Shown: piece by piece, positions 56,582 through 64,000 of the stretch | How positions within the stretch are numbered: the first letter of the stretch is position 1 | How the letters are laid out: each line of letters opens with the position of its first letter | DNA from: Alphaproteobacteria bacterium | GTDB taxonomy: Bacteria > Pseudomonadota > Alphaproteobacteria > GCA-2731375 | Reading direction: 5' to 3' | DNA: 64,000 nucleotides | NCBI GenBank assembly: GCA_965225945.1 | Contig: CBDDBZ010000039.1 | Coordinates: 32,001-96,000, forward strand | The notes under the pieces: model-generated | The model's input: the letters and a program-made list of their open reading frames with translations, nothing else | What the model was told of the DNA's origin: nothing | The model's database searches: none | Program-made: the position numbers and the translations under genes

Positions 56582-57681
56582 CGCGCAGCCGATGAGAACG
56601 GGGTGGACCCACGCCCAAACCCGCACGATACTGCGCATATGGGTCGTGCCTTGCATGGCTCGGGGGGTGCGGTGCCGGTCGTTGCCAGCAAGCAAACGGG
56701 GCCGGCGCCGCATCGTTCTCAGCGGCCCGAGTGTACTCCCGCGGCTCCCCTTGTCAGGTCCGCGGAACCGCCGCCGCCAGCCAGCCAAAACAGGAATCGA
56801 GACGCCCGCCCGCGGTGGATAAGCAGCCCGCCGCCGCCAGACTCTTGGCGGTCGCTGCGGCGGGCTACTTACCCACCGCTGCGCCGAGCCAACTCCCGCC
56901 TGCAAACCACGCAGCTACAGCGCCACGATGCCCGATGTCGCTGAAATCACCATCTAAGCGCGGTTTTTCATCGCCACCGACATATGGAGATGGCCCGACG
57001 TGAACGGCGCGTACCCCGGCCGCTTCTGATTGTTGGGACCGCGCGCCTTGGTGCGAAGTCCCATCCGATCCGCCGCCTCGTGGACTTTGTCCACCGTGCC
57101 CAGTTCGAGATAGAGCCGGAACAGGGTTCGGACGGTTTCCGCCTCTTGCTCGTTGACGATGAGCTTCCGATCCGCGGCGTCGTAGCCGAGCGGCACGAGG
57201 CCCCCCATCCACATGCCCTTCTTTTTCGAGGCGGCGATCTTGTCGCGGATCCGCTCGGCAGTGACCTCGCGCTCGAACTGGGCGAAGGACAGCAGCACGT
57301 TCAGGGTCAACCGCCCCATCGAGGTCGTGGTGTTGAACTGCTGGGTGACCGAGACGAACGACACCTCGTGGCGCTCGAAGACATCGACCAGCTTGGCGAA
57401 GTCGGTGAGCGAACGACTGAGGCGGTCCACCTTGTAGGTGACGATGATCTGGATCTTGCCGTCCTCGATGTCCTTTAGCAGGCGTCGGAGCCCCGGCCGC
57501 TCCATGTTGCCGCCGCTGAACCCGCCATCGTCGTAACGGGTCGGACTTGCATGCCACCCCTCGCCAACTTGGCTGGCGATGAAGGCGGCGCAGGCTTCGC
57601 GCTGGGCATCGAGCGAGTTGAAGTCCTGGTCCAACCCCTCCTCGGTCGACTTGCGGGTGTAGACGGCGCAGCGGAGCCGTC

Positions 57682-58140
57682 TCATGGCTTACCCCTCGTC
57701 ACGAGGCCGAAGAAGCGGGGTCCGGACCACTTGGCACCCGTGATCGCGCGGGCCACGGCGGTGAGGGAGGGATAGGTACAGCCCTGCCAGAGGAAGCCCC
57801 CATCGACGGCGTCGACCACATGGTTTCGTCCGTTCCACTCTCGAACCAAGCGGCTGCCGACGGATACGGAAGCGGTGTTGGGCGTCCGTGACCGAGCGTC
57901 GCTTTCGTTGCTGAGCCTCGCGCCGTCTCTCAGCCGGCGCCGGGCCACGGCGGACAAGCCGCCATGGCACTCGGCCTGCATCTCATAGGCGACCGCGAGG
58001 ATGATGAGGCGGCGGCTCATGCCTTTCAGAACGCTACGGTCGAAGAGCTGTTGCCATCGCTCGATCAGCTCGTCTCGAGGGAGATCGGCGAGTTGCTCGA
58101 TCTCCCCCTTCAGATCGCCATGCTTCTTTCGATCCGACAT
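57682..58140 (-). CDS. DUF2924 domain protein
   Basis: EL..RW, AYEMQ...GGLS, GSRLVREWNG, SLTAVARAITGAKWSGPRFFGL. Confidence 0.9.
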   Translation of the reverse strand: MSDRKKHGDLKGEIEQLADLPRDELIERWQQLFDRSVLKGMSRRLIILAVAYEMQAECHGGLSAVARRRLRDGARLSNESDARSRTPNTASVSVGSRLVREWNGRNHVVDAVDGGFLWQGCTYPSLTAVARAITGAKWSGPRFFGLVTRGKP

Positions 58141-58152
58141 GTTGGCGACCCG

Positions 58153-58665
58153 TCAGCTACCCTCGACGATGCGGTAGATGCGTCCACGGATCTCGTCGGC
58201 TTCGGACGTGATGGTAAGGCCCAGCTTCTTCTTGAGCGCGCCACTGATCGCGCCGCGGATCGAATGGGCCTGCCAGCCGGTCACTTCCATCGCCTCGACG
58301 ATACTCCCACCTTCGGGTCGCGACAGCAGGGTGACGAGTTGGTCGCGCTTGGTTTGTCGGCAGGGAGCACCATCCCTCGTCTCCGCATGGCGATCGTCCG
58401 ACTTGACGTCAAGGCCGATCGCCCGCCGACCATCGTCGGTCAGGGCGAGCATCAATCGCTCGCGGTCTTTGCTCTCGCGCCAAATCTCGGCGCCACCGAC
58501 CGCCGCCCGCTCCTCGACGACTCCCGCCTTGAGCATTCGATTGAGCGTGCGACGTATAGTTTCGGGTGTCACTTTCAACTTGGCCGGCACCGGGAGGACG
58601 GCGCCATTGGCGCGCCGCGCGGCGGCGGACAGGATGACGAGCTGAGTATCGTTTAGCTTGGTCAT
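58153..58665 (-). CDS. DUF3489 domain protein
   Basis: KLNDTQLVILSAAA, TKRDQLVTLL.RPEG, TGWQAHSIRGAISGALKKKLGL, RIYRI. Confidence 0.9.
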   Translation of the reverse strand: MTKLNDTQLVILSAAARRANGAVLPVPAKLKVTPETIRRTLNRMLKAGVVEERAAVGGAEIWRESKDRERLMLALTDDGRRAIGLDVKSDDRHAETRDGAPCRQTKRDQLVTLLSRPEGGSIVEAMEVTGWQAHSIRGAISGALKKKLGLTITSEADEIRGRIYRIVEGS

Positions 58666-58790
58666 GGGTGGTCTCCATCGTCTCGGGCGTCGCGGCAATC
58701 GCGATGCTCCCACCACCCAGAGCCCCGCCGACAGTCCGGCCGGGCCTCGCGGCCCGGGTCATTCGCCGGGGCGCGTCAATGCACAGCAAT

Positions 58791-59131
58791 GCTTGCCTTG
58801 GCGGGGAAGTCCAGTCGTTTCAGAGGGTTTCCTTGTCCCGACTTTGGCCTTGATCAGCGGCCGTATTGGCGATGACGGAGATCGCGGCGGAAAGCGTGGT
58901 AATGTCCCGAGCCGTCGCCTCCAGGCACCGCGCACTCCCGACAAGGCTCTCCCGCGGCCGCCTGGCGTCCTGGCCCTCGACAGCGATCTCGTGCGCCTCT
59001 TCGAGGCGCTCGGTTAGGAGCGCAAAGAGCTGATGGATAAGATCCCGATTGTCGTCGTCCAAGGCAGCCCTCCCCTTCGGCAACACCAAACAGGGCTTGC
59101 CGGGCGGGTGAAGTCCAGGACTTTCAGAGGG
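58791..59131 (-). promoter_or_regulatory. two 37-bp direct repeats (58791-58827 and 59095-59131), each upstream of a gene
   Basis: gcttgcc-N8-gaagtccag-N3-tttcagaggg in both copies. Confidence 0.65.
58820..59062 (-). CDS. small hypothetical protein
   Basis: DDDNRDLIHQLFALLTERLEEAHEIAVEGQ; TTG start with a ggggaggg RBS. Confidence 0.65.
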   Translation of the reverse strand: MDDDNRDLIHQLFALLTERLEEAHEIAVEGQDARRPRESLVGSARCLEATARDITTLSAAISVIANTAADQGQSRDKETL

Positions 59132-59182
59132 ACGTCACCAAGATCGGCTCGGGCAAGGTTGGATCCATCGTCGCTCGCTCTC

Positions 59183-59611
59183 TCATGACAGATCTTCTAG
59201 TCTCGCTTGGACTTCTTGCGCGTACTTCTCCCATTCCGCCATCGGCATTGTCTCAGGCGCGATAATGTAACCAGCCGGTTGATCCGGCTCTTGTGGCCCG
59301 TATTTCTTCAGAAGCCTGTGCACTTCGTCGTGCGCTCGGACATCACCCTTGAGAGCGAGATCGCGGAGCGTGAGAATCACGAGTTCAAACGTGGTGCGGC
59401 GGCCAGACCTGCCACCTTCGTTGACGCGATGGACCTCAGAGGCAATCTTCTCGACGATGCCTTTTCGACCCTCGGCTCCCTTCGGCCTTCCTTTGCGGTG
59501 GCCCGACCGCCCGGGTTTGAAGCGCGAGTGTTTGGGCGGGTTTCCGTAGCCAACCTTTTCATCATTTCCATTCTCCTCGGCTTCAGGTTTCCGATCATCC
59601 GTATTCGACAT
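59183..59611 (-). CDS. DUF5681 domain protein
   Basis: VGYGNPPKHSRFKPGRSGHRKGRPKG...ALKGD.RA. Confidence 0.85.
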   Translation of the reverse strand: MSNTDDRKPEAEENGNDEKVGYGNPPKHSRFKPGRSGHRKGRPKGAEGRKGIVEKIASEVHRVNEGGRSGRRTTFELVILTLRDLALKGDVRAHDEVHRLLKKYGPQEPDQPAGYIIAPETMPMAEWEKYAQEVQARLEDLS

Positions 59612-59622
59612 CGGTGATCCTC

Positions 59623-60102
59623 CTAATATGATTCCAGTCGGGCGCGGGCCTCATCTGTCAAACCGTCATGCTCTCCGGGCCATGGCGGCGGGCCATGCAT
59701 CGCGAACATCTCCATCCACTTGTCCCAATCCCAGCAGCGCGGCACGACCAGTACTCCGCCCAGGGGCATCGGTTTCGGGGGAGGTGGGCTGATCTCGTAC
59801 GTCTCGCATAACCGAATGAAACGGAGGGCGGCGCCAAGGTACTTTTCATTGATGGCCCGCCCGACGAGCTTGCGGGTGCTCGCCTCGAATAGCGTCAGCT
59901 GTCGCACCGTGCCGGAAACCCTGACAGTGACGGGTTCTTCGAGGACTTTCCCGATGTCGATGGACTCCGGCTTCACCTTCCTGGGACGGCCGAGCTCGTT
60001 CCCACTCTTCCTAGGCTTGAACTGGTGTTCCTTCGGCGGCTTGCGATAGCCCACCCGGTAATCACCGTCGTCGGAACCCCCATTGTCGTTGCTCGTGCTC
60101 AT
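59623..60102 (-). CDS. DUF5681 domain protein (second paralog)
   Basis: YRVGYRKPPKEHQFKPRKSGNELGRPRK. Confidence 0.82.
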   Translation of the reverse strand: MSTSNDNGGSDDGDYRVGYRKPPKEHQFKPRKSGNELGRPRKVKPESIDIGKVLEEPVTVRVSGTVRQLTLFEASTRKLVGRAINEKYLGAALRFIRLCETYEISPPPPKPMPLGGVLVVPRCWDWDKWMEMFAMHGPPPWPGEHDGLTDEARARLESY

Positions 60103-60120
60103 GATCCTTCTCCCTGAACA

Positions 60121-60234
60121 GTTACGGTAGGAATGCGCATTGCTGCGCACCCCCCGCGGTTACGGTAGGAATGCGCATTGCTGCGCACCCCCCGCGGTTA
60201 CGGTAGGAATGCGCATTGCTGCGCACCCCCCGCG
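60121..60234 (-). repeat. 3 x 38-bp exact tandem repeat equal to group II intron domain VI plus 3' terminus
   Basis: gttacggtaggaatgcgcattgctgcgcaccccccgcg at 60121, 60159 and 60197. Confidence 0.95.
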
Positions 60235-62084
60235 CAGATCCGGACGTGGTCGTTGAACCATCCGGCTCCTACCTCGGGTGCTTGACGGCAAACCGCTGGT
60301 CCGGCCATGGGTGGCGGATGGAGGCGCGTGGCCACAGGATTTCGGTCATGCGCTCCAGTCGCTTCCAACTAAATCGGGCTCGCTGGGACCGGCGGCGTAG
60401 CGCCCGCATCCACCGGCGTTGCAGCCTGCGGAGGAACGCACGGATGAACCGGCCTGACCCTGGGACGGCAAAGTAGTTGAGCCAGCCATTGCAGACTCGC
60501 CCCAGCCACCTACCAACTTCCCAGATGTCGTGGTGCCAGCGCTTGCGGAGCACCTCGTCGATGCGCGCCAGGGTCCTGTTGACCCGTTTGGCGACCGGTT
60601 TGCGACCAAGCCGAAAGCGTCCTCTCAGGGTCGTCGTGCAATAGTGCGTGAGGCCCAGAAAGTCGAAAGTCTCCGGCTTGCCCACCCCGCGCTGGCGCCG
60701 GTTCAAATCCGCGAACCGGCCAAACTCCACGAGGCGGGTCTTGTCCTGGTGGAGGCTGAGACCGAACCGGGCCAGCCTCTCCCGAACGTCGCGGAGGTAC
60801 CGCTCCGCATCCCGCTTGTGTTGGAACCCGACAACGATATCGTCAGCGTAACGGACGATGATCGCTTCGCCATCCGGGACGTTCGGGCGCCATTTCTTGT
60901 GGAACCACAAGTCGAGCACGTAATGCAGGAACACGTTCGCCAAGACGGGGGAGACTATTGCCCCCTGCGGCGTGCCCATACCCGTATCTGCCCATGACCC
61001 ACTCTCTATGACGCCGGCGTTCAGCCATTTCCGGATCAGACGGATGACCCGCCTGTCTCCGATGCGGTGCTCTAGGAACGTGATCAACCAATCCCGCGGG
61101 ATCGTGTCGAAGTACGCCCGGAGGTCTGCATCGACTATCCAGCTGACCTTGCGCCGTTCTATCCCGAAGGCCAGGGCATCGAGCGCATCGTGCGCCCCCC
61201 GCCCCGGTCGGAACCCGTAGCTGAAGCCAAGAAACACCACCTCGTAGATCGGTGTCAGGATCACATCCACAACCGCCTTCTGGACGACCTTGTCCTCCAG
61301 CGCCGCGATCCCGAGCGGTCGTGTCCCCCCGTCCGGCTTGGGTATCTCTACCCGCCGAACCGGCGGCGCCCGGTACGCTCCCCCTCTGTGCAGGCGCCGG
61401 TGCAGGTCGAGCAGGCGCTCATCCAGACCCTCGCCGTACATGTCCCACGTAACGCCGTCGACACCGGCTGCTGCGTCCTTCTTCAATGCGAAGTAGGCCG
61501 CACCGAGCGCGTCCGGCGTAATGTGGTGGAAGAGCGCAGTGAGACGTTCCTTCGGGTTTCTCTCTGCAGCTTTCCGTATCCGGGCCGCCGCCTGTGGCAC
61601 GCTTACCCGACACTGTGTTCGGCGCGTGCTTTGGCAATCCGGATTCCCCTTGGTTGAGGCCCTTTCCTCCGGCGACTCCGCAGAAGCTCGCGCTCCCTTG
61701 TTCGCCGCCCTCACAGGTCGTACGGCCTCATCCGACTTCTTCAAACCGTTCATCATAGGCTTCGGTTTTCTCCATTCCCTACGCGGCCCCTTTACGACAA
61801 CCGGGGCAGTTTGAAGACCTCCCAGGGTCCCAACAGAAGGCGTGCGAACGTGCATGGGTTCTCTGACACCGCGGGGCTCGCCGACATCTCACCAAAACGA
61901 CGCCTGCGATATTGCCTTCGACCGATCTGAAAGCCTCGGCACCCCGGACCATCGCTTTTACGGTGCTCAATAGCCCTGCCCATCCATGCCGCTACCGACG
62001 CTTCGCCTGCCCCCTCACGGGAGCCAACGCACGGCTCGCGGAGAAACGTGGTTCGGTTACTCCTTCGTTCCGGGGGACTTGCAC
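60197..62084 (-). mobile_element. group II intron (bacterial class E/F-like), 5' end apparently missing
   Basis: DV gAGCcggatg...cacgtccggatc follows the ORF stop; DVI has a bulged A and an AAC end; DI-like motifs (aggtgcaagtcc, gctattgagc); no GUGYG start found. Confidence 0.88.
60269..61756 (-). CDS. ltrA: group II intron reverse transcriptase/maturase, no En domain
   Basis: AAGVDG, IPKPDG..RPLGI, SYGFRPGR..HDAL, GTPQG..SP.LAN..LH, RYADD, FDFLG, GWLNYF. Confidence 0.95.
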   Translation of the reverse strand: MMNGLKKSDEAVRPVRAANKGARASAESPEERASTKGNPDCQSTRRTQCRVSVPQAAARIRKAAERNPKERLTALFHHITPDALGAAYFALKKDAAAGVDGVTWDMYGEGLDERLLDLHRRLHRGGAYRAPPVRRVEIPKPDGGTRPLGIAALEDKVVQKAVVDVILTPIYEVVFLGFSYGFRPGRGAHDALDALAFGIERRKVSWIVDADLRAYFDTIPRDWLITFLEHRIGDRRVIRLIRKWLNAGVIESGSWADTGMGTPQGAIVSPVLANVFLHYVLDLWFHKKWRPNVPDGEAIIVRYADDIVVGFQHKRDAERYLRDVRERLARFGLSLHQDKTRLVEFGRFADLNRRQRGVGKPETFDFLGLTHYCTTTLRGRFRLGRKPVAKRVNRTLARIDEVLRKRWHHDIWEVGRWLGRVCNGWLNYFAVPGSGRFIRAFLRRLQRRWMRALRRRSQRARFSWKRLERMTEILWPRASIRHPWPDQRFAVKHPR

Positions 62085-62189
62085 CTGTCGTTCCTCAAAA
62101 CCTCGTCGGCCGCGGAAATCCTGGCATTTCAGCCCCGTGGTTCCTGAAAATCTCGTCTGTTGCGGAAGTCCCGGCGTTTTTGGCCTCGG
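62085..62189 (+). repeat. tandem pair of roughly 50-bp IS-end-like repeats
   Basis: ctgtcgttcctcaaaacctcg... at 62085 and ccgtggttcctgaaaatctcg... at 62135. Confidence 0.8.
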
Positions 62190-62306
62190 CTGGATGGTGT
62201 CCCCAACATGCACACGATCGTCGTTCGTCCTCTCCATTCAACGCTTCGCGATGCCTTCTGTTCGGATGATCGCGGTCGGCCTCCACGGATATACGCCGTG
62301 GTTGTA

Positions 62307-63022: not shown

Positions 63023-64000
63023 TACCAATCGGCATTAATCAGAACTTATGCGCCCATTTACGCCGCCCGATGGACGTGATGTTCCATGGTTGATCGATGA
63101 GCTTGTTCCAGGCTTCGCAGCAGGAGGTGATGATCTGCTCGTCGGATTGGAAGACCAAGTTGGACAGCCAGTTGTCGCGCATGAACTGCCAGATGTTTTC
63201 GGTCGGATTGAGCTCCGGCGAGCGTGGTGGCAGGGGCAGGAGGGTAACGTTGGCGGGGATCTTCAGCTTGTCCGTGGTGTGCCAACCCGCCTGATCGAGG
63301 AGCAGGAGGGCATGCGCGCGCGCGCCTACCCGGGAGGAGATCTCCTCCAGATGCAGCTGCATGGCCTGGGTGTCGCAGTGGGGGAGCACGAGGGCGGCGC
63401 CGACGCCGCGTTCGGGACAGATGGCGCCGAAGATATAGGCTGATTTGGTGCGCTGGTCATGCGGTGCGCGGGGCCGGGTTCCGCGCCGCGCCCAGCGCCG
63501 AGTGATCTTGTTCTTCTGGCCGACACGGGCTTCGTCCTGCCACCAGATTTCTATCTCGGTGCCGTCGGGCAGGCGCCGGCGGGCTTGTGCCACCAGCTCG
63601 GGGAATTTTTTTTAAAATCCTCGATGACGCCCTCCTCCTGGGCATGGTGGCGCGGACGCGCCGTCATCTTCGTGAAGCCCATCGCCTTCAATTCCCGGCT
63701 CACCGTGGTCTCGTCGAGCGAGATCGCGAACATATCCCGGATCCAGCCCGCCAGATCCTTCAGCCGCCAGCGCACCACGCCGTCGACCGCCGGGTTCGGC
63801 CCCGCATCGACGCGTGCCCCCAGCGCCTGGCGTTGTGCATCGTCGAGCTTCGCCACCGCACCGGGCGCCTTGCGATCGATCAAGCCGTCCGGGCCCTCGG
63901 CGTTGAAATGCAACACCCAATCTCGGATCACCTGAAGCCCCACGTGGCCGGTCCGTGCCGCATCCGTCCGCCGCCCACCGTCATAGATCACCGCGAGAGC
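63023..64000 (-). mobile_element. IS630-family insertion sequence, copy 2 (runs off the window)
   Basis: Near-identical to 37343 onward; same ctta flank. Confidence 0.93.

Follow-up and report, generated by a model that had tools for sequence, protein, structure and literature searches.

Tandem domain VI units at the 3' end of an alphaproteobacterial group II intron: a probable scar of self-nested retrohoming

The window analysed here is a stretch of 64,000 nucleotides (nt) of an Alphaproteobacteria bacterium (assembly GCA_965225945.1, contig CBDDBZ010000039.1, positions 32,001 to 96,000), and it carries on its minus strand a group II intron whose 3' end is present as three exact tandem copies of a 38-nt unit. 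We propose, with a probability of about 0.8, that this array is the 3' scar of self-nested retrohoming by a group II intron without an endonuclease domain, which would have inserted repeatedly into its own resident copies between domain V (DV) and domain VI (DVI). Our reading builds on two types of junction between intron units in the genome of the window, on a match between the exon-binding site 1 (EBS1) of the intron and the intron-binding site 1 (IBS1) ending its 5' exons, which covaries among other introns, and on cases in which the intron lies precisely at the DV/DVI junction of foreign introns. The route by which units made of domains I to V (D1-D5) were lost is less sure than the origin of the array as a nest.

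According to this model, the EBS1 loop (CAGAUC) would pair with an IBS1 hexamer, GAUCUG or GGUCUG, with which the 5' exon terminates, and this 6-nt pairing would be the main element of target recognition. Because the IBS1 hexamer is also the end of DV plus the first base of the DV/DVI linker, each resident copy would carry a target exactly at its own DV/DVI junction, and related introns with the same hexamer at that position would be targets too. An insertion at this junction would place a new D1-D5 block on the left and a new DVI on the right, and repeated insertion would generate (D1-D5)n(DVI)n, with the innermost intron as the sole intact one and each extra unit as the record of one insertion. 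The junction between two DVI units, GTAAC/CGCGG, would then correspond to the intron 3' end followed by the 3' exon of the self-site, and the junction between DV and GTGCG to the 5' exon followed by the intron 5' end. At the window locus, the blocks on the left side would have been lost, so that one D1-D5 block (minus 30 nt) and three DVI units would persist as a scar.

Two kinds of tandem array in one genome

Tandem Repeats Finder (TRF) reported a repeat of period 38 at window positions 60121-60234 (3.0 copies, 100% matches, 0 indels, score 228), and a separate repeat search placed its copies at 60121-60158, 60159-60196 and 60197-60234, with a mutual identity of 100%. Three exact tandem 38-mers cannot have arisen by chance. 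Neither flank extends the repeat, as the base preceding it is not the one with which the unit ends and the base following it is not the one with which the unit starts; the phase of the unit is therefore fixed rather than arbitrary. On the minus strand, the unit begins directly after GATCTG (60240-60235) and terminates with GTAAC, and we read it as DVI plus the 3' terminus of a group II intron. The Rfam model RF00029 (DV and DVI) aligned end to end at 60270-60197 (-) with 35.4 bits (E 1.3e-4), a score that misses the curated gathering score of 40. The structure is nonetheless convincing, as folding gave a DV hairpin with a 2-nt bulge followed by a DVI hairpin with an unpaired UA, the A of which stands 8 nt from the 3' end. 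In the direction of the intron, the first unit (60197-60234) adjoins DV, lies within the RF00029 alignment and is the sole one in a normal ribozyme context; the second (60159-60196) is an exact copy reached through a GTAAC/CGCGG junction, as predicted for an intron 3' end meeting the 3' exon of the self-site; and the third (60121-60158), again an exact copy, finishes with the base that would be the outermost intron 3' end.

GTAAC is the true 3' end of the intron, since the flanks of copies at independent sites part immediately past it and since a contig of the public run X18 joins ...GGTCTG straight to window base 60120, which corresponds to an intron-less allele with a canonical IBS1. In runs X14 and X16, flank contigs pass from the unique flank into the third DVI unit; the window locus is thus polymorphic for the presence of the intron, being empty in X18 and filled in X14 and X16. 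All 19 public runs that matched were represented by Logan contigs (k=31), and in the four examined, X1, X14, X16 and X18, the contigs break at the array, with none of the listed pieces spanning it; as k=31 contigs cannot resolve a period of 38 nt, DVI copy numbers come from the assembly. A 17-nt motif of the empty-site 5' exon in X18 had no match in the window with up to 2 mismatches, and the 3' flank of the window copy (59200-60120) had none in the relatives G001, G002, G041 and G042. No promoter-like or terminator-like site was found at 59900-60500. An earlier note on this DNA, made from its letters alone, had described three perfect 38-bp copies of DVI with the 3' splice site, running from the DV/DVI linker to the intron terminus and standing about 18 nt upstream of the start codon of a DUF5681 gene (ATG at 60102), and all of this is borne out.

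The comparison with other copies of the intron that the same note had suggested was made by mapping the 38-nt DVI unit and, as a reference for D1-D5, a unit of 1881 nt (GTGCGCC...GGATCTG) over the 39 contigs of the window's genome (G000), which carries the intron at 11 loci. DVI arrays occur at 6 of these loci (2, 3, 3, 4, 5 and 6 units, with 17 DVI/DVI junctions) and tandem D1-D5 arrays at 5 of them (8 junctions of DV with a 5' end, at 100% identity), where the DV linker ...GGATCTG meets the intron 5' end GTGCG directly, with no DVI between. At least one of the two junction types is present at 8/11 loci. Full copies begin with GTGCGCC and end with GTAAC, and their flanks part exactly there (boundary type GUGYG...AY). 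Such a collection of near-identical copies, together with the empty-site allele in X18, indirectly suggests that the intron is mobile.

C20, C24 and C34+ each hold one D1-D5 unit and one DVI unit, while C34- holds one and three, and C37 holds two and one. At C33 and C38a, a partial D1-D5 unit (nt 845-1881 and nt 1101-1881, respectively) accompanies one full unit, with five DVI units at the former and six at the latter, and the window locus on C39 has one D1-D5 unit reduced to nt 31-1881 with three DVI units. The partial unit is the outermost, 5'-most one at 3/3 of these loci (C33, C38a and the window), which fits damage to old outer copies. At C38b (C38:555991-562657), three full D1-D5 units and a fourth one cut by the contig end (at least 3.46 units) face four DVI units, which fits n = n. 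Nesting therefore goes beyond two levels at C38b, and DVI units reach six at C38a. Finally, C31, where the array breaks off at a contig end, shows two full D1-D5 units and a cut one, and C35, likewise at a contig end, shows two DVI units.

At C31:260175-260177, the outermost unit has a T instead of a G at intron position 1 (GGGTCTG/TTGCGCC), a change expected to prevent the outer intron from splicing at its 5' end. At C38:143958-146452 (-), unit nt 821-1116 and nt 1101-1881 lie about 1.4 kb apart with a 16-nt overlap, an arrangement that may reflect an insertion within the outermost copy of the intron.

Could the DVI arrays instead be a 38-nt minisatellite that coincides with DVI by accident and that grew by slippage or unequal crossing-over? 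Two units suffice for expansion or contraction by such processes, and counts do differ between loci, from 2 to 6. However, the unit ends carry no microhomology, the phase of the unit is identical at 6 loci and the unit ends are those of retrohoming junctions, so that we consider this origin very unlikely, in agreement with the earlier note, which had rejected random slippage. Slippage may still have modified DVI copy numbers secondarily.

A target site at the junction of domains V and VI

In the RF02005 alignment of the window copy, a hairpin loop of domain I at 61924-61929 (-) reads CAGATC, and the corresponding RNA loop (CAGAUC) is perfectly complementary to GAUCUG. The hexamer GATCTG at 60235-60240 (-), which comprises the end of the DV 3' strand and the first base of the linker (J5/6), would be the internal IBS1 copy and the self-homing site, and the intron's own sequence just before DVI, GGATCTG, is a perfect IBS1. 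At independent sites of G000, all 5' exons end with GG(G/A)TCTG, whether these sites lie outside introns (C20, C31 and C34+) or at the DV of two other introns (C34- and C24/C37). In a second metagenome-assembled genome (MAG), a 99.3%-identical intron has five 5' exons that end with GATCTG or GAGCTG.

The assignment of the CAGATC loop as EBS1 is supported by covariation between lineages. When the EBS1-equivalent loop and the last 6 exon nt were collected from 79 loci of other genomes and 5 further regions, 17/24 distinct pairs of exon and loop had 6/6 base pairs, and these included 15 of the 19 distinct loops. When exons and loops were paired at random by shuffling, such pairs numbered 2.2 on average and 8 at most, and 0/2000 shuffles reached 17.

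The DV/DVI position is also used in introns that are not copies of the invader. The arrangement of host DV, intron and host DVI was found at C34- in G000, in G029, G002, G299 (= OZ220465) and G324, and in the metagenome contig L106. In these nests, the host DV abuts the intron 5' end and the host DVI abuts the intron's own DVI; at C34-, the intron, here with three DVI units, separates the DV of another intron from its DVI. The hosts differ in at least four of their DV or DVI sequences, so that several independent insertion events took place.

Further arrangements were seen beside these nests. In G299 (L031-L033 and L108), the host DV/DVI linker contains a full-length relative (82-84% identical) followed by head-to-tail ORF-less derivatives of about 730 nt, which retain unit nt 1-551, the last ~143 nt and DVI (period 730 and 2.2 copies by TRF in L033); this head-to-tail order is as expected from insertion at the junction of the host DV with the resident intron. 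A second intron lineage, which we call 'Z', was found at G000:C24:80700-81036 (-) and G000:C33:304405-304672 (-), with RF02005 scores of 168.9 and 142.3 bits, respectively. It begins 6 nt into the DVI of its host intron (TGCGGG/GTGCGCCGG), and since its putative EBS1 loop can pair with GCGGG, it may be another intron homing into the DVI of introns. The domain I of the copy on C33 contains a 32-nt insert made of the 3' half followed by the 5' half of the 38-nt unit.

These foreign nests also bear on the question of whether an assembler could have generated or miscounted the repeats. In favour of such an artefact, the arrays at C31, C35 and C38b stop at contig ends, self-nests were seen in this one assembly only and the counts rest on it. 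Nevertheless, the sequences flanking six DVI arrays and five D1-D5 arrays are clean and unique, and variants inside DVI arrays (a 36-nt unit at C33 and a unit with a first-base C>T change at C38a) argue against assembler stutter. Three 1.9-kb units that are 100% identical have been resolved, suggesting that long reads were used, and the junction types are the same as those of heterologous nests in 4 other genomes and in a metagenome contig. An artefact thus appears highly improbable, although the internal variants and the resolved units do not establish the exact unit counts.

The same observations tell against a mechanism that the earlier note had favoured, i.e. reiterative copying by the reverse transcriptase (RT), which would stall at DV and re-prime at the intron 3' end to add several DVI units in a single event. 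The unit ends do match a domain boundary and the intron terminus, and template switching is a known property of group II RTs. This mechanism nevertheless predicts neither tandem D1-D5 units nor their 8 junctions of DV with a 5' end in 5 loci, and it leaves unexplained why the boundary falls exactly between the IBS1 and the 3' exon and why insertions occupy the same position in foreign introns, all of which leaves it with a very small probability. The other proposal of that note, serial 5'-truncated insertions, came closer: insertion does appear to have been serial, as retrohoming into the intron's own DV/DVI junction, while truncation is not required. What the note had not seen is that the linker carries the intron's own IBS1, which would permit serial self-insertion.

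Unequal unit numbers and the search for other self-nests

Several observations weigh against self-nested retrohoming. Once either unit is present more than once, the numbers of D1-D5 and DVI units are unequal at every fully assembled locus (1 versus 3, 1 plus a partial unit versus 5, 1 plus a partial unit versus 6, a partial unit versus 3, and 2 versus 1), so that the n = n prediction always requires a second, presumed step. The sole locus that fits n = n (C38b) is cut by a contig end, and copy numbers rest on one assembly. Self-nests were found in 1/41 relatives, G000 itself, and in none of the other 40; likewise, full-length array matches were found in 1/401 genomes of the class, again G000, with 2 candidates scored per genome. 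G041 and G424 carry 30 and 37 copies of the intron, respectively, with the same internal site, and neither has a self-nest. A domain I substitution restricted to G000, which could have accounted for self-nesting, was looked for and not found, the sole consistent domain I difference between G000 and G041 (position 208) being also present in G002 and G029. As for the target, the +1 base of the self-site is a C, whereas most natural sites have a T, and G000 contains 8685 GATCTG or GGTCTG hexamers of which few are occupied, showing that IBS1 alone does not explain target choice.

Given the abundance of these hexamers and the lack of a common hairpin, the marked preference for intron linkers must stem from selection, from cis-preference or from unrecognised contacts, and we assume that selection against genic insertions, or cis-preference, is behind it. 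At 9 non-intron sites, no consistent 5'-exon hairpin was seen (z-scores from -1.4 to +2.0). Membership in class C (IIC) is not supported, since the 9 sites show no consistent stem-loop target and the DV triad is AGC, that typical of IIC introns being CGC; the IBS1 is 6 nt long. The nearest RTs in PDB are of class IIC (7uim, 1.4e-46), in a database that holds no RT of classes D, E and F, and these three classes are not separated by Pfam, NCBIfam or PDB.

Searches in other genomes returned nests of the foreign type. In G041, 2 of the 30 intron copies are heterologous nests. At the 79 loci from other genomes, TRF detected no array of DVI-like units beside DV. When metagenomes were scanned with a degenerate DVI/DVI pattern, two stretches were returned, the heterologous nest L106 and a chance match, L105. 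With ~30 and ~37 copies, respectively, the intron lineage has proliferated strongly in the MAGs G041 and G424 by the standards of group II introns in bacteria. In a Mesorhizobium sp. (L096, 3781-7606), two full-length copies of a related intron stand head to tail (period 1913, 99%), with a run of N after them; the 5' flank of the second copy mismatches its EBS1, and this tandem probably arose as an artefact when a short-read assembly was scaffolded.

For the imbalance between unit numbers there are four candidate sources: recombination between 1.9-kb repeats, a deletion linked to an insertion sequence (IS), incomplete cDNA and slippage in the 38-nt array; the IS-linked deletion is suggested by the junction between a transposase fragment and the intron in the window. 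A refinement of self-nested retrohoming, which would account for the surplus of DVI units and resembles the serial 5'-truncated insertions of the earlier note, is that some increments are made of DVI alone from the outset: after reverse splicing into the self-site, a cDNA begun at the intron 3' end would copy DVI and a part of D1-D5, abort, anneal to the identical resident copy and be resolved precisely, adding one DVI without any D1-D5. DVI units outnumber D1-D5 units at 4/5 fully assembled loci with arrays, cDNA synthesis of group II introns is well established to be target-primed and to start from the intron 3' end, and the required homology would exist by construction, as the 5' exon is an identical intron copy. 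On the other hand, recombination between 1.9-kb repeats after a full-length insertion would give the same product, the imbalance at C37 is in the opposite direction (2 D1-D5 units versus 1 DVI) and none of the loci in G000 shows an inner partial D1-D5 unit, as would be expected from imprecise resolution. We therefore regard DVI-only increments as possible but rather doubtful.

Self-nested retrohoming would also have a consequence for the long-term fate of the intron, which we put forward as a tentative speculation. Homing at its own DV/DVI junction could provide a self-renewing safe haven, each insertion recreating one intact target, in which arrays might run away to lengths beyond those assembled and in which DVI-only units might tally abortive retrohoming events that were resolved on an identical resident copy. 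Arrays longer than assembled are conceivable because three arrays break contigs and because intron k-mers reach about 60 to 500 times the depth of the flank in four runs. Summed contig depths of the intron relative to the unique flank, taken over window positions 59700-60700, were ~60x in X1 and 250-500x in X14, X16 and X18. The assembly holds ~17 D1-D5 units, and the excess in depth could correspond to unassembled copies, to other carriers in the samples or to RNA.

The window copy, its neighbours and known systems

The window copy appears to be a dead remnant, to judge from its one truncated D1-D5 unit followed by three DVI units. By BLAST with the reference unit, C39:92235-94085 corresponds to unit nt 31-1881 at 99.9%, so this copy has lost its 5' splice site (GTGCG) along with the rest of the initial 30 nt. 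Its first retained bases are at 62082-62085 (-), position 62085 being nt 31 of the 1881-nt D1-D5 unit, and its domain I region (group-II-D1D4-6) lies at 61857-62081 (-), matching the full model RF02005 (1-225) with 163.7 bits (E 2.2e-47, gathering score 49). The RT/maturase ORF encoded by the intron, listed with 528 aa, spans 60269-61855 (-) and is intact; it differs from that of the reference copy by 2 aa. It matched Pfam RVT_1 (1.7e-36) and, over residues 117-489, NCBIfam TIGR04416 (347.2 bits versus a cut-off of 300), while GIIM, with 21.6 bits, stayed under its cut-off of 23; no endonuclease (En/HNH) domain was detected in this ORF by the domain profile search. Matches in PDB begin at residues 90-127, and as RT homology thus starts only at about residue 90-117, the true start of the RT is probably internal. 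The DV hairpin, delimited by the RF00029 alignment and the fold, is at 60236-60269 (-), and the stop codon TAG of the intron-encoded protein (60271-60269) overlaps the base of this hairpin.

Upstream on the intron strand, part of an IS630-type (DDE_3) transposase element, at 62086-62305 (-) with an upper limit (~62305) read by eye, has become joined to the truncated intron. The junction between the two has a GGT common to both. Window positions 62260-62083 are 99% identical to C39:534322-534499, where the paralog runs into a DDE_3 ORF (Pfam 3.4e-18). The fusion makes a chimeric ORF of 81 codons (62237-61992, -) that passes from the transposase start into the intron, and a second DDE_3 ORF with helix-turn-helix (HTH) domains is located at 63039-64000 (-). 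On the other side, the 3' exon (59623-60120, -) consists of an 18-nt leader and the DUF5681 gene (Pfam 1.2e-10; ATG at 60102), a purine-rich stretch in the leader being a possible ribosome-binding site. Downstream of the intron on its strand, window positions 56954-60102 (-) encode two DUF5681 proteins, a DUF3489 protein (weak HTH match), a DUF2924 protein and a serine recombinase (Resolvase N-terminal), a cluster that resembles an integrative mobile element.

This state of the window copy also bears on the idea that the array is functional, with alternative branch points and 3' splice sites tuning the expression of the DUF5681 gene as in C.te.I1 of Clostridium tetani. Three intact DVI units stand on the same strand 18 nt upstream of the start codon, and repeated sets of DV and DVI that specify alternative 3' splice sites are known (PMC4424553). 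However, the window copy should not splice, since its 5' splice site and the start of its domain I are missing. Its three branch points are in all likelihood unused, and the three candidate branch points and 3' splice sites proposed in the earlier note do not apply to it. Moreover, the same arrays occur in unrelated flanks elsewhere and all three sites would give an identical downstream ORF. A function of this kind is therefore extremely improbable.

If the array is a nest scar, an exact minisatellite has been traced to a specific cause, a retroelement with its target inside itself. The target comprises the part of DV that pairs with the strand of the catalytic triad, plus the linker; related introns may find it hard to mutate, making it a durable target, which could explain why the same position was used in several foreign introns from five genomes. 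Such a choice of a conserved target would parallel that of homing elements. Unit counts in these natural arrays could further be used to tell apart retrohoming products that are complete, incomplete or recombined, and the arrays could show how introns without an endonuclease domain resolve their cDNA when the target is homologous. In annotation, tandem DVI or D1-D5 units should be read as nests and not as assembly errors; one intron-finding pipeline is reported to drop sequences with multiple intron copies early, and another to miss the outer intron of a nest.

Among known systems, the closest is Methanosarcina acetivorans, where homing sites reportedly lie in the ORFs of related introns, as the title of Dai & Zimmerly 2003 has it. 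As in its nests, the introns studied here lie inside introns, with both host halves at the exact termini of the inner intron and over more than two levels. The homing site here is the DV/DVI linker and not an ORF, and the invader is the host intron itself, so that we are dealing with a variant and not with the M. acetivorans arrangement. M. acetivorans is reported to show repeated group II homing into other introns, with nests up to five deep that contain no host coding exons, a perpetual homing site and growth balanced by homologous-recombination deletions (Zimmerly & Semper 2015, PMC4424553; Mohr et al. 2010, PMC2882425).

Other introns share single features with the present one. The twintrons of Thermosynechococcus elongatus have one nesting level, in domain IV/ORF (Mohr et al. 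2010, PMC2882425), and in the Trichodesmium twintron the inner intron is in domain I of its host (Pfreundt & Hess 2015, PMC4649490); proliferation via a harmless target is discussed by the authors. Unlike the introns described here, neither type is at the DV/DVI position or self-nested, and neither forms arrays. In lycophyte mitochondria, cox1i1149g2 is a group II intron inside its own copy, at internal position 652 (Zumkeller et al. 2020, PMC7049729), and is thus a self-insertion as proposed here, but a single event with a degenerate, unspliced ('zombie') inner copy and without iteration or arrays. More than one set of 3' domains, or an unusual 3' end, after a single D1-D4 is also found in C.te.I1 of C. 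tetani, whose repeated DV/DVI sets are used in alternative splicing (PMC4424553), and in B.c.I4 of Bacillus cereus, which has an extra 56-nt 3' segment and no repeated DVI units (PMC1865049). In C.te.I1, DV and DVI are repeated together, with ORFs between them, and are functional, whereas here DVI alone is repeated, exactly and without spacing, in a copy that appears to be non-functional.

No DV/DVI-linker homing site, no homogeneous D1-D5 or DVI arrays and no DVI-only scars were found by full-text searches of the literature or in the portions of the articles that were read. The statement in the earlier note that no such array had been described therefore needs a qualification: nested arrays are known from M. 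acetivorans, and it is the DVI-only tandem array for which these portions gave no precedent. What sets the present introns apart from the M. acetivorans nests is the presence of two homogeneous tandem arrays and of DVI-only scars, in a bacterium rather than in an archaeon. Nested homing balanced by recombination is already known; the site that is targeted, the nesting of the intron within itself and the scars made of DVI alone are new variations on it.

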